From contig CAVWLP010000002.1 of the NCBI GenBank assembly GCA_963755915.1, positions 992,001 through 1,056,000 on the forward strand: DNA of 64,000 nucleotides, written 5' to 3'. Positions within the stretch are counted from its first letter, which is position 1; each line of letters opens with the position of its first letter. Below the pieces are notes generated by a model, which searched no databases, was not told where the DNA came from, and saw nothing but the letters and a program-made list of their open reading frames with translations. This document shows positions 1,163-64,000 of this stretch, one piece after another. Origin of the DNA: an uncultured Phycisphaerales bacterium. Its GTDB lineage: Bacteria > Planctomycetota > Phycisphaerae > Tepidisphaerales > Tepidisphaeraceae. A program made the position numbers and the translations under genes.

Positions 1163-1170
1163 CCCCCCGC

Positions 1171-1295
1171 CCAACACCCCAAGGCCGCCCCGAACGTAAC
1201 CAGGACAGCCATGTGCTCCCGCACCGGAACCGCGCCGATATACGAGTGACCGCATTCCATCGTCACACAAACCATAACCGAAAAAAATCTTCCTC
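1171..1295 (+). repeat. ~125 bp dispersed repeat family C, copy 1 (empty)
   Basis: Aligns end to end with 32793-32920 and with the IS-split copy 60292-60362 + 61838-61895. Confidence 0.9.
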
Positions 1296-1357
1296 TTATT
1301 CTTCCGCCCCCAGCGCGATATCCTCCAAAAAAGCTTTCCGCCAGGAGGCATCAAAAA

Positions 1358-31115: not shown

Positions 31116-32783
31116 ATGCTTCTGCCGATACTAGCGGCTCTCTGCGTGACGGCCATTTACGCCGCGGGATCGTGGTCAAATCAATTCGTCTACGACGACC
31201 ACGAAGTCATCGAAAACCAGTTCCCCATCCGCCACTTCAGCGACCTTCGCGCGATTTTCACCGAGCCCCACTATTTGAATTTTCCATACTATCGACCCCT
31301 GACTCGGCTCAGCTTCGCCGTGCAGGTGAATGCCAATGCCGGCCCGCGCGGGTTTCACTTGCTGAATGCAGTGCTGGCCGGCGCGGTTTTACTCGCCGCC
31401 TGCGCGCTGCTGCGGCGCGACGCGCTGGGGCTAGGCACCGGCGCCGCCCTGATCGCCGCCACATGGTTCGCCCTGCATCCGGCAGTCTCCGAATGCGTAT
31501 ATCCCGCCGCCTCCGGCAGGGAAACCCTCCTTCCCGCCCTTCTGATTCTCCTCGCAACCTGGGCCTACCTGGGCCGCGGCGCCGCCTGGTTTTTGGCGGC
31601 GATGATTTTCTTTGCCGCCGCCCTCCTCTCCAAAGAACAGGCAGCAGTTTTGCCCGGCATCTTTCTTCTCGCCGATTTTGCAGGTTTGACGCAGCGGCCA
31701 AGCAAACCAGCACGCTGGATCATCCGCTATCTCCCCATCGCCGCGATCCTGGGGTGCTATTTCCTCGTCCGGCAATTGGTGATCGGCAGCGGGAGCGTTC
31801 ACCTGACGTTGTTTGATCATCCCCTCGAACCCCTGAAATCGATCCTCTACGGCATCCAAACCGCCGTCATCCCCTTCATGGCCCTGCGTTACGAGCCGCC
31901 GTTTGACGTCTGGTTTGACTGGCGAATGAGCGTCGTCGCATGCCTTGTCGTTGGTCTGCTCATCGCTGGAGTAATCGCCGGAGGCAAACGCGCCCGGCTC
32001 ATCGGAATTTTCTGGCTCGGATGGTTTCTCCTGCTCCAGTTGCCCACGGCACACATCGTCACCCAGGAGGCCGGCTATTCCGAGCGATACGCCGCCCTGG
32101 CGATCCTCGCCCTCCCCGCCCTGGCGGGAATGCTTCTCTCCGCAGCCAACGGCGCGAGGCTGCGGCGCGCCGCCGGAATTGCCGCCTGCACGTGGATCGC
32201 CATCGAGGCGTGCGTCACTTTCTATCGCGGTGCCTATTACACTGACGATGCGTCGTTTTCCATCCAGTGGCGAAACACCAATCCCGACGCCGCCGGCCCG
32301 CATGACGGGCTGGGTCGTGTCGCCCAGCAGCGCTTGCAGTGGGAGACGGCGATCCAGGAATATCAGGCGGCTCTTTCGATCGAACCCAATGATTCAACCG
32401 CGCGAAACAATCTCGCCAATGTCTACTCCATCACCGGAGATTTCGCAGGCGCCACGCAGCAATATGAATGGCTCCTGAACCACAACAGCGTCGGCGCCGA
32501 CCCCGTGGCCGTGATGACCAATTACGCCCAGCTCCTCGCCCAGCAGGCCTTCGACCGGCACGACGCCGCGATGCGCGACAAAGCCCACGGCCTGCTCAAC
32601 GCGGCCCTGCAGCTTCGCCCCGATTATGCCCAGGCGCATCTGATTCTGGGCGAATGGAACCTGGCCTTCGGCTCACGCGAAGCCGCGATCCGGCAATTGC
32701 AAATTGCCCTGGAATTGAGGCCGGGATGGAAAGAAGCCGAAAGATTGCTGCGGGCGGCGGAGCAGTCAGACAGCTCAAAATAG
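31116..32783 (+). CDS. TMTC-like membrane protein (GT-C fold) with C-terminal TPRs
   Basis: FVYDDHEVIEN, YYRPL, FHLLN, FALHP..E, ALLSKEQA, SERY, followed by TPRs. Confidence 0.82.
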   Translation: MLLPILAALCVTAIYAAGSWSNQFVYDDHEVIENQFPIRHFSDLRAIFTEPHYLNFPYYRPLTRLSFAVQVNANAGPRGFHLLNAVLAGAVLLAACALLRRDALGLGTGAALIAATWFALHPAVSECVYPAASGRETLLPALLILLATWAYLGRGAAWFLAAMIFFAAALLSKEQAAVLPGIFLLADFAGLTQRPSKPARWIIRYLPIAAILGCYFLVRQLVIGSGSVHLTLFDHPLEPLKSILYGIQTAVIPFMALRYEPPFDVWFDWRMSVVACLVVGLLIAGVIAGGKRARLIGIFWLGWFLLLQLPTAHIVTQEAGYSERYAALAILALPALAGMLLSAANGARLRRAAGIAACTWIAIEACVTFYRGAYYTDDASFSIQWRNTNPDAAGPHDGLGRVAQQRLQWETAIQEYQAALSIEPNDSTARNNLANVYSITGDFAGATQQYEWLLNHNSVGADPVAVMTNYAQLLAQQAFDRHDAAMRDKAHGLLNAALQLRPDYAQAHLILGEWNLAFGSREAAIRQLQIALELRPGWKEAERLLRAAEQSDSSK

Positions 32784-32792
32784 CGACTCCAG

Positions 32793-32920
32793 CCAAACAC
32801 CCCAAGGCAGCCCCGGACGTCACCGGGGCAGCCGTGTGCTCGCGCAGCGGAACCGCGTGTTATATACGAGTGACTGCCTCTTCTCGTCACTAAAACCGTA
32901 ACCGAAAATACGCTTTCTTC
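32793..32920 (+). repeat. Repeat family C, copy 2 (empty)
   Basis: Aligns with 1171-1295. Intact site ccgcgtgttatatacgag at 32853-32870. Confidence 0.9.
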
Positions 32921-33017
32921 TCTTTCGGCCCCGAATAACGCCGTTCCCTAAATCCAGATGGTCGGTCACACCCACAGCCTGCGAGCGCGACAAGAGAGAG
33001 TAATACCTGCGGCTTCC

Positions 33018-34367
33018 CTACCGCGTATTACTCCCCATCGGCACCACCACATTCTTCGTCCCCCGCTTAATCGTCACCGGAACCGTGCTTTCCGGAATGC
33101 ATCGCGCCGCAAACTCATCGTAATATTTATTGATGAACGTCCGCGTCACCCACGCCGTCCCGTCCGCCAGGCCGCAGATCGTCGTGCCCGGCATGAGGCC
33201 CTGGGTCTTTTCAAGTTCCATCAGCATATCCAGGTCTTTAACCCGCCCGTAACCATCGACGATCCGGTCGAGGATTTTTCGCATCCACGTGCTCCCTTCC
33301 CGGCACGGGGTGCACTGGCCGCATGATTCGTGGGCATAAAACCGGACGCAGTTGCGCAGCGCCCGCACCATGTCGGTCTGCTCGTTCATGACGATCATCC
33401 CAGCGGTGCCCAGCCCCAGGCACCCGCCGCGAAAGCGCACGTCGTCGAAATCGAGCTTGATGTCGAGTTGCTCCGGCCCAAGCACCCCCATCGAGATTCC
33501 CCCGCAAATCGAGCCTTTGTGCTTGCCCCCCTTCATTCCGCCGGCCAACTTGTTGATGGCATAGTCGAGCGTGATCCCGAGTTCATCTTCGTAAACCCCC
33601 GGCCGATTAACGTGACCCGACATCCCATAAAGCTTCGGCCCCGGGCTCGACGGTGTCCCCATCGATTTAAACCACCCCGGCCCCCGCTCGATGATCGGCG
33701 GAACGCAGCAGAGCGTCTCGACGTTGTTGATCACCGTCGGCCGCGCAAATGCACCCGCAATCGCCGGAAACGGCGGCTTATTCCGCGGCCACCCGCGCTT
33801 CCCCTCCAAAGCTTCCAAAAGCCCCGTCTCTTCCCCGCAGATGTACGCCCCCGCGCTGGCATGCACGTAACACTCAAGCTTGTATTTGCTCCCAAAAATT
33901 CCGTTCTTCCCGAAAATCCCGTGCGCGTAGGCTTCTTTGAGCGCCTGCTCCGCCACCTTGATCTCACGATGAAATTCCGCCCGGACGTAGATGTAAGCCA
34001 CGTCCACCTGCGTGGCGATCGAAGCAATCGCGATCCCTTCCAGCAAACTGTGCGGATCGTAATCCATCAGATAGCGATCCTTGAACGTCCCCGGCTCCGA
34101 CTCATCCGCATTTACGGTCAGATAATGCGGCCCCTTCTTTTCCTTGGGGATGAACGACCACTTCTGCCCCGCCGAGAACCCCGCCCCACCGCGCCCGCGC
34201 AGGCCCGATTCCGTGACCGTCTTGATGATGTCGTCCGGCTTCATATCCAGCGCCTTGCGCAGCGCCAAATAGCCCCCCGTCGCGACATAATCGTCATACC
34301 AGTGCAGCTTGCGCTTAAAAGGGTCGGGATCGATGCGCTTGATCAGAACGGGTTCGTTGTAAGCCAT
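33018..34367 (-). CDS. nuoF: NADH-quinone oxidoreductase subunit F
   Basis: SGLRGRGGAGF, NADESEPGTFKD, GAYICGEET, ESCGQCTPCREG. Confidence 0.97.
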   Translation of the reverse strand: MAYNEPVLIKRIDPDPFKRKLHWYDDYVATGGYLALRKALDMKPDDIIKTVTESGLRGRGGAGFSAGQKWSFIPKEKKGPHYLTVNADESEPGTFKDRYLMDYDPHSLLEGIAIASIATQVDVAYIYVRAEFHREIKVAEQALKEAYAHGIFGKNGIFGSKYKLECYVHASAGAYICGEETGLLEALEGKRGWPRNKPPFPAIAGAFARPTVINNVETLCCVPPIIERGPGWFKSMGTPSSPGPKLYGMSGHVNRPGVYEDELGITLDYAINKLAGGMKGGKHKGSICGGISMGVLGPEQLDIKLDFDDVRFRGGCLGLGTAGMIVMNEQTDMVRALRNCVRFYAHESCGQCTPCREGSTWMRKILDRIVDGYGRVKDLDMLMELEKTQGLMPGTTICGLADGTAWVTRTFINKYYDEFAARCIPESTVPVTIKRGTKNVVVPMGSNTR

Positions 34368-58729: not shown

Positions 58730-59932
58730 TCACACGATCCGCTCAACCGCCTCCGGTGTACTGTCGCTCTCCATCCCCGAATCCCCACCCTTCCTCACCT
58801 CAAGATTCTCCCTCGACCTCCTCCGATACTGCCTAGGACTCAGCCCAAACCTTTCCTGAAACGCCGTGCTAAGCTGCCGCGTCTCCTTAAACCCGCAAGC
58901 ATCCGCGATCTCCCGCACCGGCCGATCCGTCCCCGCCAGCAGCAGCCGCGCACGCTCAATCTGCACCCGCCGGATTTCCTGGTAAGGCGATCTCCCCAGC
59001 GCCTTGCGAAACCGCATCTCCAGCGATCGCCGCGAGAGTGCCGTCCGCGCCAGCAAATCTTCCACGCTGATATCCCTACCTCCCTGGTCCCGGATGAACC
59101 GCATGACGGACGCCACCTCCCCATCCCCCAGCGCGATCACATCCGTCGATCGCCTGGTGATCACCTCCCGCGGCGGAATCAAAATCGGTTTTGCCGGCGC
59201 CGCTTCCCCCGCGATCAACCGCGCCAGCAGCGCCGCCGCTTCATACCCGATCTGTTCCGTATTCAGCCGAATGCTCGACAGCCTCACCCCCGAAAGCTCG
59301 CATTGAATGTCATCGTTATCCACCCCCAGCACCGCCACATCATCCGGCACAATCGCGCCGTTCCGAACCACTTCCCGCACGATCTCCCGCGCAAACGCGT
59401 CGTTGTAACAAAAAATCCCCAGCGGCCGCGGCAGCGATCTCAGCACCTCCTCGCGCTGCAGCGCCGAATCCTCCCCCGACATATCCATCGCCTGACACGA
59501 ATACGGCGCCACCGCCTCGCAAAACGCGTCCCGCCTGATCCGGCAGCACTCCAGCTCAAACGGCCCGCAAAACGCGAAGCTCCGCAAATGCCGCTCTTCC
59601 AGAAAATATCGCGCCGCCATCCGACCCGTCGCAACGTCATCGGGAAAAACCCCCGGCAATCCCGCCTCCGGATTCAAAATATTCGCGACATTCACCGCCG
59701 GCTTCCCCATCTGGATGAGGAAGTCCGCCTGCCCCCGATCCTTGATCTGGATGATGAACCCGTCGAAATCGTCCTTCGTCAGGCTCCGCGAAAAATCCCA
59801 GTCCGACATCGGATTGAAATCAAAGTCCCAGTTCCCATGGATCTTCGCGAAGTCCGCAATCCCGCGCAGAATCCCCCGGCTATACGCGTACGCAATGTTC
59901 GCACAAAGTCGGATTCGCAGGTTTTCAGCCAT
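58730..59932 (-). CDS. XylR-type regulator (periplasmic-binding-like domain plus AraC HTH)
   Basis: YSRGILRGI, LPRPLGIFCYND, PDDVAVLGVDND, GYEAA.LL, SRRSLEMRF, IADACGF, SPRQYR. Confidence 0.9.
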   Translation of the reverse strand: MAENLRIRLCANIAYAYSRGILRGIADFAKIHGNWDFDFNPMSDWDFSRSLTKDDFDGFIIQIKDRGQADFLIQMGKPAVNVANILNPEAGLPGVFPDDVATGRMAARYFLEERHLRSFAFCGPFELECCRIRRDAFCEAVAPYSCQAMDMSGEDSALQREEVLRSLPRPLGIFCYNDAFAREIVREVVRNGAIVPDDVAVLGVDNDDIQCELSGVRLSSIRLNTEQIGYEAAALLARLIAGEAAPAKPILIPPREVITRRSTDVIALGDGEVASVMRFIRDQGGRDISVEDLLARTALSRRSLEMRFRKALGRSPYQEIRRVQIERARLLLAGTDRPVREIADACGFKETRQLSTAFQERFGLSPRQYRRRSRENLEVRKGGDSGMESDSTPEAVERIV

Positions 59933-60435
59933 AAACCTCGACGTTGCGTATATTGTGAACATATTAGCAGCTTTTTGCACTGTCGCGAGCATACCCCAAC
60001 ATTTTCTAAGGAATATTCCCCCCAACTTATTGCCGGAAAACACGTTATCGGCTGTTAATCCCCCGAATCCGGGTTACTGCCCGACTCGCGTTCTGATACT
60101 TTTGCCGTTCGTGAGGTCTCTACGTTTTTTGCCGCTCGCCTTCCTCGTCGGACGAGAGGGTTTCGTCTTCTTCCTCCCGTTCCTTCTGGCCTGCATTTTC
60201 ATTCATTTAGTAGTTCGCGCCGCCCGGGGTTGATCGAAACCTCAGCCAAATCAGCAGCCAAAATTCTCGAACTTCTCCCCCGACTTTCTTCCCAACACCT
60301 CACAGCCGCCCCGAACGTCACCGGGGCAGCCATGTGTTATCGCGGCGGAACCGCGTTTTATAATCGCATGAAAGGCCATCTCCCTGCCGGAAGTTAACAT
60401 TCCGGTTTTGGTGTCATTCACACAAGGAGATAGCC

Positions 60436-61635
60436 ATGAAGTTATACGACAAGGTAGTTCAGGTAGGGCTGGACGTCCATCGGAAGTTCTCGTCCGCCAG
60501 TCTGCGCGACGCTTCCGGGAAGGTCATTGCTCGCGAACGCCTGGATCACCTGGATCGCCAAAAGCTTCGAGAGCGAATCGCTCAGTGGCCGCGAGGCACG
60601 CCGGTGATCCTGGAAGCGACATTTGGCTGGGGATGGCTCAGCGATGAGTTGCAGATTTTGAACATGCAGCCCCACCTGGCCTCGAGCCGCAAAGTGGCGG
60701 CATGGCGGGAAGGACGCGGGATCGCCAAGAGCAACAAGGTCGATGCCGACCTGCTCAGTGAACTCTGGAACGAAAAACCGATATTTAAGCGAGGCATCAT
60801 GAAGCGCTGGTGGGAAGTCTGGCTGGCCCCACGCGAGATTCGTGATCAGCGGGAGCTGCTGCGCCATCGGATGACCCTCGTTCAGGCTCAAACGCAGTTG
60901 AAAAATCGCATTCACGCGACGCTGCACCGCCATGGAATCGTCAGCGAGCTCACCGACCTCTTCGGTGTGCAGGGCCGGCGTTTCCTGTCGCTGCTCACCG
61001 AGGACAAGACCCTGAGCCTCTCAGGACGCCAGACGCTCAAGGAAGATCTCATGCTGCTGGATTCTCTGCGTCGCCTGATCGCACGGGCCACCCGCCGGTT
61101 CCGCGCGACCATGAAACGATCGGAGATCGGCCAGCGCCTGATGACCGTGCCGGGCATCTCCACCGTGCTGGGATATACGCTGGTCGCCGAGATCGGCCGA
61201 ATCGATCGTTTCTCCTCCAGTCGATGCCTGCTCCAATACAGCCTGCTGGCGCCGCAGGCCGACGACAGCGGAGAAGATCGCGATGCCAAGCCCATCGGCC
61301 GCCGACTTGGTCACGCCGGTCGCACTACCCTTCAGTGGGCCTTTATTCAGGCCGCCCACTCGGCAGTGCAAAGGGACGCTTTTTTGCGAGAACTTTTCAA
61401 TCGCCGTACCAACAACGGCAAACAGGACCGCGGTCGCGGCTACATCACCGTCGCCAACCGCATATGTCGGATCGTCTATTCAATGTGGAACAACAACCAG
61501 GATTATCAGGAGGTGCCGCCCCCAAGACCGGGAAGCAAAAGACATAAGGAACTGATCTCGTCCGGAAGTGGGCCAGCCCTGGCTCGAATTGGCCATGAGC
61601 CCGAAGCAATTCAGGCTCGAGAGGCCACGTTATAA
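60436..61635 (+). CDS. IS110-family DEDD transposase/recombinase
   Basis: VGLDVH, ILEAT, KSNKVDA, LRHRMTLV...KNRIH, LMTVPGI, AEIG.IDRF, LAP....SG. AAGGAG RBS. Confidence 0.95.
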   Translation: MKLYDKVVQVGLDVHRKFSSASLRDASGKVIARERLDHLDRQKLRERIAQWPRGTPVILEATFGWGWLSDELQILNMQPHLASSRKVAAWREGRGIAKSNKVDADLLSELWNEKPIFKRGIMKRWWEVWLAPREIRDQRELLRHRMTLVQAQTQLKNRIHATLHRHGIVSELTDLFGVQGRRFLSLLTEDKTLSLSGRQTLKEDLMLLDSLRRLIARATRRFRATMKRSEIGQRLMTVPGISTVLGYTLVAEIGRIDRFSSSRCLLQYSLLAPQADDSGEDRDAKPIGRRLGHAGRTTLQWAFIQAAHSAVQRDAFLRELFNRRTNNGKQDRGRGYITVANRICRIVYSMWNNNQDYQEVPPPRPGSKRHKELISSGSGPALARIGHEPEAIQAREATL

Positions 61636-61750
61636 TTGGGCCGCCCGCGCCGGATGAGATCATGTGCCGCTCGGCCAAACGCTGTTGATCGGGCCCGGCC
61701 AGCACGAATGGATATATGGACCGCCGAGAGGCCAGTCACCAGCCGGCAGA
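61570..61750 (+). ncRNA. Predicted bridge/seek RNA of the IS1111-type element
   Basis: Two stem-internal loop-stem units carrying segments that match the target flanks (61581-61589, 61630-61634) and the circle junction (61654-61660, 61708-61714). Confidence 0.75.
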
Positions 61751-61934
61751 CGGACGAAGAGGTCTCGGAATGAAAAAGAAGTAACCGCTTTTCGCGAGGA
61801 GAATTTTTTTGTTGATCGGGGAAGCCTTTCATGGATATTCGAGCCCCCGCCTCTTCTCGTCACCCAGACCGTAACCGAAAATACTCTTCCTTCTTCTCGA
61901 TCTAAATGTCTGACGATCTCGCCCGCCTATTCAT

Positions 61935-64000
61935 TTACGCAATCTTCTGCCGCGTCTCCCGCCGCTCTTCACCCAGCTTCGGCCCCAAATACTCCCCCGT
62001 ATAACTCCCTCTCACCTGCGCCACCTCTTCCGGCGTCCCCGCCGCCACCACTCGCCCGCCCCCCTCGCCCCCTTCCGGACCCATATCAATAATCCAATCC
62101 GCGCACTTAATCACATCCAAATTATGCTCGATCACCAGCACCGTATTCCCCAAATCCGCCAGCCGATTCAGCACGTTCAAAAGATTATTGAATATCCGCA
62201 AAATGCAACCCCGTCGTCGGCTCATCCAGCACATAAAGCGTATGCCCCGTCGCCGATTTCCCCAGCTCCGTCGCCAGCTTCACCCGCTGCGCCTCCCCGC
62301 CGGATAAGTTGCGTGCTCGGCTGCCCCAGCTTCACATAACTGAGCCCCACATCATTCAGTGCCTTCAGCAAGCTGCGCAATCCGCGGAAAATTCTCAAAG
62401 AAAACCAGCGCCTCCTCCACCGTCATGCTCAGCACATCCGCGATGTTCTTCCCCCGGTAATGAATCTCCAGCGTCTCCGCGTTGTACCGCGTCCCATGGC
62501 ACACTTCGCAATCCACATAAACATCCGGCAAAAAATGCATCTCGATGCACTTGTTCCCCTGCCCCTGGCAGGCTTCGCACCGCCCACCCTTCACGTTAAA
62601 GCTGAACCGCCCCGCTTCATACCCCCGAATCTTCGCTTCCCGCGTCTTCGCAAAAACCTTGCGAATATCGTCGAACACGCCGGTATACGTCGCCGGATTC
62701 GATCGCGGCGTCCGCCCGATCGGGCTCTGATCAATCTCAATCACCTTGTCGATCTTATTGACCCCATTCACCGCCTTATGCACCCCCGCCTTCACCTTCG
62801 AAGCATAAAGCTTCCGCTTAAGCACCGGCAAAAGCGTCTGATTCACCAGCGTCGATTTCCCCGACCCGCTCACCCCCGTCACGCAAACCAGCCCCCCCAG
62901 CGGAATCCGCACGTCGATATCCTTGAGATTGTTCTGCCGGCACCCCCGCAGCTCCAGCGCATTCTTATCCGGATTCACCGGCCGCCGCGCCTGCGGCGTC
63001 ACGATCGCATATTCCCCCGTCAGATATTTAATCGTCGTACTATGCGTATTCTCCAAAACATCCGGCATCGGCCCCTGCGCACACCACCTGCCCCCCATGC
63101 GCCCCGCCGCCGGCCCGATATCGATCAGATAATCCGCCGCCCGGATGCACTCCTCATCATGCTCCACCATCATGACCGTATTCCCGATATCCTGCAGCCG
63201 TCTCAGTGTCCGAATCAGCCGCGTGTTATCGCGCTGATGCAGCCCGATCGTCGGCTCATCGAGCACATAACACACCCCACCAGCCCGCTCCCCACCTGCG
63301 TCGCCAGCCGGATGCGCTGCGCCTCGCCGCCAGAAAGCGTCGCCGTCTTTCGATCCAGCGTCAGATAGCCCAGCCCCACATCCACCATGAACCCCAGCCG
63401 CGACGAAATCTCCCGCACGATCGGCTCCGCGATCGCCGCCCCTTCTTCGCTCAAGCGCAGATTCTCAAAAAACCGCTTCGCCGTCTCGACGGTCAAACTC
63501 GAAACATCATGAATGCTATACCCCGGCAGCTTAATCCCCTCCGCCCCCGGCAGCGGCGCCGCCACCGGCCCAGGCGTATCACTGTGCAACCGCACCGCCA
63601 GCGCTTCCTTCTTCAGCCTCGTCCCCCCGCAAACCTCGCACGGCTGCTCTGACATATATTGATGCAGCCGCGTCTTCACAAACTCGCTCTCGGTATTATC
63701 AAACCGCCTCTGCAAATTCGGCAGCACCCCCTCAAACCACGTCCCCGTCCCTCCATCCCCGCGCTTCTCCGTCCCCTCCATCAAAATCTGCTGAACCTTC
63801 TTCGGAATGTCCTTGAACGGCTGCGTATACGAAATCCCAAAATCCCGGCAAAATTGCCGCAGCACCCGGCTGTAAAAAATATTCATCCGCTTGCCGTTTT
63901 TCCGCCACGCCTCAATCGCCCCGTTCTCCAGCGACAGCGACTGGATCGGGAACGATCAGCTCCGGATCAAACTCGAACTTCGTCCCCAGCCCATGACACG
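61935..64000 (-). CDS. uvrA: Excinuclease ABC subunit A, 3' part, with several frameshifts
   Basis: [79 protein letters not shown]. Confidence 0.95.

Follow-up and report, generated by a model that had tools for sequence, protein, structure and literature searches.

Probable guide-RNA recognition of a dispersed repeat by an IS110-family insertion sequence of a Tepidisphaeraceae bacterium

The window analysed here, 64,000 nucleotides (nt) from an uncultured Phycisphaerales bacterium of soil (C2:992001-1056000 of a 6.6-Mb, 3-contig assembly), carries an insertion sequence (IS) of the IS110 family inside one copy of a dispersed repeat, while two further copies of the repeat in the window are empty. 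IS110-family elements have long been known to insert into dispersed intergenic repeats (IS621, ISPpu9 and ISPpu10), and the question raised by this locus is what distinguishes the copies that are hit. A first-pass annotation proposed that a guide encoded by the element fits only the occupied variant of the repeat. The follow-up described below supports, at a probability of about 0.87, the overall explanation of the insertion by a guide RNA; guide fit looks necessary, and not sufficient, for occupancy. The element and the repeat copies of the window are as follows (a caret marks the insertion point).

60363..61837, + strand: IS110-family IS, 1475 bp including one copy of the core
60436..61635, + strand: transposase gene, 399 amino acids (aa), with DEDD/RuvC-like and Transposase_20 domains
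60283..60362, + strand: left half of the occupied repeat copy, ending in ...ggaaccgcgttttaTA (left target and core); nhmmer match C2:1052283-1052370, model positions 4-91
61838..61895, + strand: right half of the occupied repeat copy, starting with ttcgagcc (right target); nhmmer match C2:1053833-1053895, model positions 79-141
32787..32923, + strand: empty repeat copy B, site tgttaTA^tacgagtg; right guide 6/9, left guide 6/7
1163..1300, + strand: empty repeat copy C, site gccgaTA^tacgagtg; right guide 6/9, left guide 3/7

The assignment to the IS110 family is based on Pfam matches of the transposase to PF01548 (DEDD_Tnp_IS110, E 7e-9) and PF02371 (Transposase_20, E 2e-13), that is, the N-terminal DEDD/RuvC-like and C-terminal domains of that family, and on a score of 161.5 bits against a cut-off of 140 for NCBIfam NF033542 (IS110 family RNA-guided transposase). 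The C-terminal domain can be aligned with the IS621 transposase 8wt6 (E 7e-4), and the alignment covers the serine motif ..P....SG.., which reads LLAPQADDSG in the window transposase; phmmer gave no alignment between the N-terminal domain and the IS621 transposase. The best matches on annotated plasmids are below 30% aa identity (labels IS110 family, IS1328 and ISAtu7), and the nearest public relatives, L001 and L002 among them, come from metagenome-assembled genomes (MAGs) labelled Tepidisphaeraceae. Non-coding stretches of 73 nt precede the start codon and 202 nt follow the stop codon.

A total of four IS copies were found genome-wide by BLAST with the 1475-bp query (the window copy, C2:348428, C2:2992798 and C3:899527), each 100% identical over positions 1-1475. 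All four lie at one identical position of one repeat, with ...ggaaccgcgttttata on the left side and ttcgag... on the right, and their flanks differ otherwise. The identity of the four copies indicates recent spread of the IS, and the window element is, judged from its sequence, an active or recently active IS110-family IS of IS1111-like layout. The flanks of 60363-61837, when joined, read ccgcgttttatattcgag and are identical to the empty copy C2:1267113 at 29/29 aligned positions; excision in silico thus restores an empty copy, indicating precise insertion without target duplication. Such site-specific, duplication-free insertion, with a core common to donor and target, is as known for the IS110 family. 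The first-pass annotation had therefore rightly seen an IS110 element within a dispersed repeat, for which 43 copies were counted, and its coordinates and strings for the element and for the two empty sites (32853-32870, ccgcgtgttatatacgag; 1230-1246, ccgcgccgatatacgag) were correct.

Within this genome the ends remain ambiguous by 3 nt, since ATA is found at each junction. The junctions were therefore compared among 17 elements, the window element and 16 relatives (numbered with L below) at 55-90% transposase aa identity, taken from genome and metagenome contigs. The left junction is TA^ATC-N-CATGAAAGG in 17/17, and the right junction CCTTTCATG-GA-TA^ in 13 of the 14 that are readable, the exception being L017 with GACA^. 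A TA core is present at the two junctions of the window element and of 12 of the 13 relatives in which both are readable, L017 again being the exception. These junction reads point to TA as the core and bear out the earlier claim that only the core leaves the position of the ends ambiguous. Each end carries a 10-bp subterminal inverted repeat, which as drawn lies 4 nt inward on either side, and the terminal extensions sum to 8 nt with one core copy included.

60363..60376, + strand: left end, 4-nt extension ATCG, then subterminal inverted repeat CATGAAAGGC; motif kept in 16/16 relatives
61824..61837, + strand: right end, subterminal inverted repeat GCCTTTCATG, then 2-nt extension GA and core TA

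The region around the transposase stop codon folds into a structure in which both sides of one internal loop are related to the sequences that flank the element.

61554..61661, + strand: predicted target-binding domain of a bridge/seek RNA, with three stacked stems, internal loop, short stem and apical hairpin (minimum-free-energy fold of 61540-61840)
61580..61589, + strand: right target guide UGGCUCGAAU, 5' side of the loop; pairs with top strand A^TTCGAGCC(A)
61628..61636, + strand: left target guide CGUUAUAAU, 3' side of the loop; same sense as tt-aTA-AT of the left junction

The stretch GGCTCGAAT (61581-61589) is the reverse complement of attcgagcc at 9/9 positions, and the two empty copies of the window (atacgagtg) agree at 6/9, exactly as proposed in the first-pass annotation. 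A second 9-mer match to the target is present at 61096-61104 within the coding region, and about 0.5 chance 9-mer matches are expected between the IS and a 50-nt target on two strands (estimated by hand). The 9-mer alone is thus not above chance, and the credibility of the guide rests on its structural setting and on covariation with the flanks in relatives.

Both were observed. Across 13 relatives and 33 stem pairs, 89.7% of cells pair, versus 26-42% when the 3' partners are slid; eight pairs are changed on both sides, including all six of the apical stem, and the observed covariation score was matched by 0/500 shuffles. The loop sides vary with the flanks as listed.

Right guide / right flank, window: GGCUCGAAU / ATTCGAGCC
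Right guide / right flank, L001: AGCUCGUAU / ATACGAGC
Right guide / right flank, L017: CAUCGCAU / ATGCGAT
Right guide / right flank, L005: ACCGCCCCU / AGGGGCGG
Right flank, L006: TAGGGTGG
Right guide / right flank, L023: AAAAGCG / CGCTTT; L024: AAAUGCG / CGCATT
Left guide / left junction, window: UUAUAAU / ttaTA^AT
Left guide / left junction, L017: UCAUAAU / tcaTA^AT
Left guide / left junction, L020: UCCUAAU / tccTA^AT
Left guide / left junction, L026: CGUUUAAU / cgttTA^AT
Left guide, L006: UUUG opposite CCCG, by wobble

Changes of the right guide track the right flanks in L017, L001, L005, L006 and L023-L026. L020 and L021 have the right guide of the window element yet sit outside the repeat, and their right-guide mismatches are of the G:T or U:G wobble type in one of two and three of three cases, respectively. 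The mean longest exact run of the right guide is 6.7 with its own flank (n = 14) versus 2.5 with the flanks of other elements (n = 139, maximum 6); for the left guide the values are 4.3 (n = 14) and 2.2 (n = 146). As the relatives share ancestry and some share guides, these figures represent about eight independent guide classes, not 14 events. A structured RNA with loop bases that covary with target flanks is what defines bridge RNA and seekRNA, and the order of guides in the window element is the complement of the top strand first, followed by the match to the bottom strand. The right guide is accordingly judged real, set in a predicted bridge/seek-RNA target loop.

The guide fit was then compared with occupancy over all 43 repeat copies, each scored against the left and right guides.

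TA core, right-guide run of at least 8, left-guide run of at least 5: 8 copies, 4 occupied
ATACGAG, mismatch two bases from the core (both empty copies of the window, 6/9): 23 copies, 0 occupied
CA in place of the TA core: 5 copies, 0 occupied
Good right target, left-guide run of 2-3: 6 copies, 0 occupied
Right-guide run of just 7 (C2:824065): 1 copy, 0 occupied

Occupancy is thus 4/8 among the guide-compatible copies versus 0/35 among the others (hypergeometric 70/123410 = 5.7e-4, calculated by hand). The first-pass annotation had named two findings that would speak against its proposal, IS copies at sites unrelated to the repeat and poorly matching copies occupied as often as good ones; neither was encountered. 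Its statement that the guide fits only the occupied variant holds inside the window and fails genome-wide, where attcgagcc is present at 9/9 in seven empty copies (C2:1286436, C2:1267113, C2:4406567, C2:4138314, C2:1057514, C2:1215910 and C3:316668). Discrimination depends on the TA core combined with both guides, and the suggestion that guide fit explains which copies are hit is correct in direction and incomplete in extent, as four empty copies pass the core and two-guide test as well as the occupied ones. Elements of other organisms (L016, L022, L001 and L002) are inserted in members of this repeat family at the homologous position, and their guides match.

Several observations weigh against the guide-RNA explanation. 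The statistics of occupancy are thin, with four insertions only. One occupied copy, C3:899527, matches the right guide at 7/9 (attcgagta), and the left guide pairs with just five contiguous nt (TTATA) of the occupied sites. The left guide has a run of 6 with the empty copy C2:4406567, a better fit than it has with any occupied site, so that guide fit fails to explain why this copy and three others are empty. The left-target position next to ATA is often mismatched in relatives (L016, L018, L021 and L022); if such a mismatch is tolerated, the six copies with good right targets should also be usable, yet all are empty. Among segments 3' of the target domain in 12 relatives, a guide for the left end of the IS was not found. 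The RNA-library data consist of assembled contigs of a relative of about 92% identity, without ends or strand. Finally, the transposase of 399 aa and the extensions of the element depart from the descriptors of the IS1111 group, for which PMC11187229 gives transposase lengths of 330-350 aa and, for the terminal extensions, 7 (or 6) + 3 bp.

The RNA-library data come from a rhizosphere metatranscriptome (run X8), in which a 448-nt contig, aligned to 61443-61886, covers the 3' end of the transposase gene, the entire non-coding region and the right junction; its right guide differs at 61582 (G>A) and 61587 (A>T). Because these data are contigs alone, cover by the RNA run does not show transcription. 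Two joints in the RNA-run contigs were considered as excision products and rejected, since 19-22 extra letters separate the two sides and the sequences are empty repeat copies of another organism. Four soil sequencing runs yielded DNA contigs that contain the IS with its left junction; these runs are not independent, because the source sample is probably among them. Neither an empty allele of the window locus nor a circle junction was seen in the contigs of the sequencing runs. An Rfam search of 59800-62300 and of 32600-33100 (an empty copy), at E up to 10 for both, yielded only SNORA11, Ysr276, Xoo5 and raiA-hairpin, all chance-level matches far below gathering scores.

The four equally fitting but empty copies lead to the rival that survives best, though it too is unlikely, namely that guide pairing is partial and that a second target determinant, a GC-rich stem-loop CGCGG-CGGAA-CCGCG abutting the T-rich left target, selects the copies. 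A terminator scan detected CGCGGCGGAACCGCG followed by TTTTATA (60341-60355), a 5-bp all-GC hairpin, and the four occupied copies share 22 identical nt, GGAACCGCGTTTTATATTCGAG, of which the guides account for about 5 + 9. The targets of ISPpu10 possess a GC-rich 5' stem-loop as an additional gate of specificity, reported as a sequence-structure dual match (bioRxiv 10.64898/2026.03.19.712850), and C2:4406567, which fits both guides and is empty, has ...CCGCCTGTTATA in place of ...CCGCGTTTTATA. However, GGAACCGC is nearly invariant throughout the repeat family, so that the extra shared bases reduce to about three variable positions left unexplained, which could be shared by chance among four events. 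The identical 22-mer is present in three empty copies, and two of these, C2:1286436 and C3:805624, possess the perfect hairpin as well without being occupied, indicating that the hairpin together with an exact site is not sufficient either. Moreover, the ISPpu10 stem, as described in the preprint, contains the left target itself, whereas the window hairpin does not, and no such hairpin is visible in the left flanks of L017, L020 and L021, which are inserted outside the repeat.

Occupancy could also reflect descent, by duplication of an occupied repeat copy or by spread of flanks through recombination between IS copies. In the repeat tree, the window copy lies next to C2:348428. Over about 140 nt, the IS copies at C3:899527 and C2:348428 have nearly identical left flanks (C3:901002-901140 and C2:349903-350040), and their right flanks belong to different repeat subfamilies, which suggests an exchange of flanks via recombination between these two copies. 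As a general explanation, however, descent is highly improbable: the sequence outside the repeat differs at 4/4 loci, and C2:2992798 and the right half of C3:899527 lie elsewhere in the tree. When the site columns are left out of the alignment, occupied copies turn up in no fewer than three separate parts of this tree (a short alignment with weak support), a scatter that argues for independent insertions and not for one duplicated lineage. The relatives from other organisms noted above at the homologous repeat position also argue against descent, and L017, L005, L006 and L023-L026, with other guides, sit in unrelated sequence that matches those guides.

That the transposase itself recognises the site like a classical site-specific recombinase, the loop complementarity being coincidental, can hardly be entertained: the expected number of chance 9-mers and the second, meaningless 9-mer would permit it, but the two loop sides covary with the flanks in about eight independent guide classes while the stems stay constant, the mismatches of the L021 right guide are all of the wobble type expected of RNA-DNA pairing and not of protein readout, and RNA guidance has been shown by experiments on relatives (PMC11208160, PMC11187229).

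According to the guide-RNA explanation, the transposase would partner with an RNA that the 3' end of the element encodes, and the target domain of this RNA (61554-61661) would offer a pair of short guides within a single internal loop. On the 5' side, UGGCUCGAAU would pair with A^TTCGAGCC, the right target read on its top strand, and on the 3' side (CG)UUAUAAU would pair with the bottom strand of the left target and the TA core; the left guide would additionally match the first 1-2 nt of the left end of the element. Recombination would then take place at the TA core, without target duplication, between ...GTTTTA-TA and TTCGAG... of the genus-characteristic repeat of about 135 nt, and only those copies with a TA core and a near-core match to both guides (eight here, four of them occupied) would be permissive. 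By analogy with published work on IS621, ISEc11 and related elements, we infer that the RNA is made and bound by the transposase and that the window element forms a circular intermediate; the candidate junction promoter and donor-binding part described below have the same basis.

Recognition of the donor, for which a bridge RNA or seekRNA has a second loop that pairs with both IS ends, is less well defined here, and the following features are candidates.

61708..61714, + strand: candidate donor guide AUGGAUA, same sense as the right IS end plus core (CATGGATA)
61804..61817, + strand: T run of seven T, then TTGATC (61812-61817)

The conserved AAUGGAU(A) at 61707-61714 would read the right end and is a candidate donor-binding part of the RNA. 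The AAUGGAU stretch is identical in 12/12 aligned elements, and the right end is invariant as well. RNAalifold on 12 relatives predicted, 3' of the target domain, a hairpin flanked by conserved AAUGGAUA. As a guide for the left end, GAUGAGAU was considered and rejected: it resembles the complement of ATCNCAT and does not covary with it. TTGA(C/T) occurs at the equivalent place in 13 of 14 aligned relatives, and in L006 it is displaced by one base away from the end. If the element circularises, TTGATC, a 16-nt spacer and GATAAT across the junction of right and left ends could constitute a junction promoter; the T run (61804 onward) may instead end the RNA.

The 5' half of the RNA target loop is traversed by the transposase open reading frame (ORF) in the window element (61554-61635) and in L016, L017, L018, L021, L023 and L024. 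In the window element the overlap with the predicted domain amounts to 82 nt at the 3' end of the ORF, and its TAA stop codon (61633-61635) falls inside the left target guide. Of the 11 relatives whose ORF is readable, seven share with the window element a stop in the left guide (8/12 altogether); in the four others the ORF stops slightly earlier, with a TGA or TAA that still falls inside the same RNA domain. Because of the overlap, changes of the right guide alter the protein tail (from ALARIG to ALHRIG, ALTRIG or ARARIG in relatives).

Compared with known systems, the window element resembles the IS1111 elements ISEc11, ISKpn4 and ISPa11 as they are described in PMC11187229, with a DEDD transposase, subterminal inverted repeats (7-17 bp in that group), and a long non-coding region after the transposase gene with a downstream RNA. 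One RNA domain with two short target matches, the guide order (top-strand complement ahead of bottom-strand match), natural retargeting among relatives and the absence of target duplication are likewise shared with IS1111-type seekRNA elements in the same source. It is unlike these elements in the 399-aa transposase, in the extensions of 4 nt on the left and 2 nt plus core on the right, and in the target loop that lies partly inside the transposase ORF with the stop codon in the left guide. Its host phylum is also different, Planctomycetota (Tepidisphaeraceae), and its best plasmid matches are below 30% aa identity.

With IS621 (PMC11208160, PMC11208158) the window element shares the internal loop, with left and right guides reading opposite strands around a 2-nt core, the insertion in a dispersed intergenic repeat, the alignable C-terminal domain with its catalytic-serine motif, and some guide bases that match the donor, as do the published handshake bases. 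In contrast to IS621, the RNA is at the right end (left in IS621), the guide order is reversed, the core is TA instead of CT, and the N-terminal domain is not alignable by phmmer. The bases that match the donor, 1-2 bases of the left end, extend the left (bottom-strand) guide, whereas in IS621 they follow the right guide.

ISPpu9 and ISPpu10 of Pseudomonas putida are likewise reported to be multi-copy IS110 elements with all insertions in one conserved intergenic repeat (PMC12288879; bioRxiv 10.64898/2026.03.19.712850), and in ISPpu10 a GC-rich hairpin also adjoins the target. The difference from both is a non-palindromic repeat of about 135 nt in 43 copies versus a repetitive extragenic palindrome (REP) of about 35 nt in hundreds of copies, and a hairpin that excludes the left target.

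The overlap of loop and ORF, the stop codon in the left guide and the donor-matching bases of the left guide may be new features. Since the loop lies within the ORF end, the UAA of the left guide is the stop codon and the donor-matching bases are on the left guide, we also considered, tentatively and with some doubt, that this clade is mechanistically distinct from both characterised models and that sister lineages retune single guide bases to repeat variants (TTCGAG versus TACGAG) as a co-evolving pair. If so, the handshake would be placed on the opposite guide from IS621, implying a different order or geometry of strand exchange, and the IS and the repeat would form a co-evolving pair instead of a passive landing pad with an occasional visitor.

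As a whole, the case in the window is instructive but expected for the IS110 family and does not overturn current understanding. Its value lies in a natural data set of guide-target pairing from Planctomycetota, a phylum in which such elements are unstudied, comprising paired single-base changes of guide and target, off-target sites matched by wobble only, and a census of permissive versus occupied sites in one genome. Such data are useful for working out how long the guides are and which mismatches they tolerate in IS1111-type systems, which have received less attention than IS621. The overlap of loop and ORF and the donor-matching bases of the left guide are small, testable features that could bear on mechanism. 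For annotation, the gain is a genus-wide 135-nt repeat and three IS110 lineages in one genome, at least two of which are confined to a repeat of their own. In the literature on this taxon with IS110 or REP (ISfinder not covered) no paper was found, and it is plausible, though weakly tested, that the pair of repeat and IS is undescribed.

The repeat itself was defined by an nhmmer profile seeded with the three window copies. The 50 matches comprise 39 full or near-full empty copies, eight halves flanking the four IS copies and three fragments; the left-half match at C3:908914-908997 was considered as the site of another IS and proved to be a degenerate copy beside a gene. The mean column identity is 80% (22 copies), and 42/43 copies are intergenic by our own crude ORF caller based on codon usage. 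RNAalifold on 22 copies gave no indication of a structured RNA, with 0/15 pairs compensatory, a covariation term of 0.03 and a consensus fold of just -7.8 kcal/mol; when 42 copies were inspected on two strands, only one-sided G-U changes were found, the forward strand tolerating G-U better than the reverse, and this candidate was rejected. A role as promoter or leader was also rejected, as the orientation relative to the downstream gene shows no bias (21 same, 22 opposite) and no sigma-70-like site is present in 60200-62000. The repeat shares its intergenic location with classical REP, but it is too long and too weakly palindromic to be one (about 135 nt in 43 copies versus about 20-40 nt in hundreds). 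The genome contains two matches to PF01797 (REP-associated tyrosine transposase, RAYT; Y1 transposase).

A sequence-only covariance model was used to search related genomes for the repeat. Of the 12 other genomes from this genus, 11 have it, often with at least 53 matches; it was also detected in 1 of 24 other genera of the family (through the unpublished genome G014 alone), whereas none of 24 genomes from other families gave a match. In the sister genome G001, with flanking genes about 93% identical to those of this genome, the orthologue of the window IS site (locus A) lacks the repeat and has 106 nt instead of 1699; the orthologue of locus B has no repeat copy and contains a different insert of 2.3 kb (L067, G001:C5:1231600-1234300), with three ORFs of 126-232 aa; at the orthologue of locus C the repeat is present. 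This pattern of presence and absence indicates that the repeat family is genus-specific and that its copies turn over.

An unusual left end was observed in L001 (83% identical; positions 1380-1445) and, alike, in L004 and L019. The left terminus with at least 39 nt of left flank is a perfect inverted copy of the right terminus and flank, and reads ...gctcgta^TATC-CATGAAAGG without the usual ATCG extension. This end was seen in one MAG and in a separate metagenome contig, and looks like either a rearrangement at the subterminal inverted repeat or an assembly artefact.

The genome carries two further IS110-family lineages, one of nine copies (C2:2891645, C3:759529, C3:806218 and six others) and one of six (C2:148766 and five others). 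Most members of the nine-copy lineage lie within a different palindromic repeat composed of CTTGGCG units, ttcttggcgctcttggcgtc ... gacgccaagagcgccaagaa, and hence at least two of the three IS110 lineages have a repeat each of their own.

In the window element, the 5' leader of the transposase (60377-60440) folds with z = -3.45, AUCUCC pairing with GGAGAU of the ribosome-binding site, and a terminator-like hairpin (60386-60406) precedes this fold. Both are usual safeguards of IS elements against read-through expression.

A second repeat module, ccccgtgtagccgccgNgcttgcNcggcgc, is located directly upstream of several copies of the main repeat (near C2:349983, C2:3689600, C3:901082, C3:909000, C2:1780815 and others), and its hairpin stem shows the compensatory variants gtgc/gcac, gggc/gccc, ctgc/gcag and gagc/gctc.

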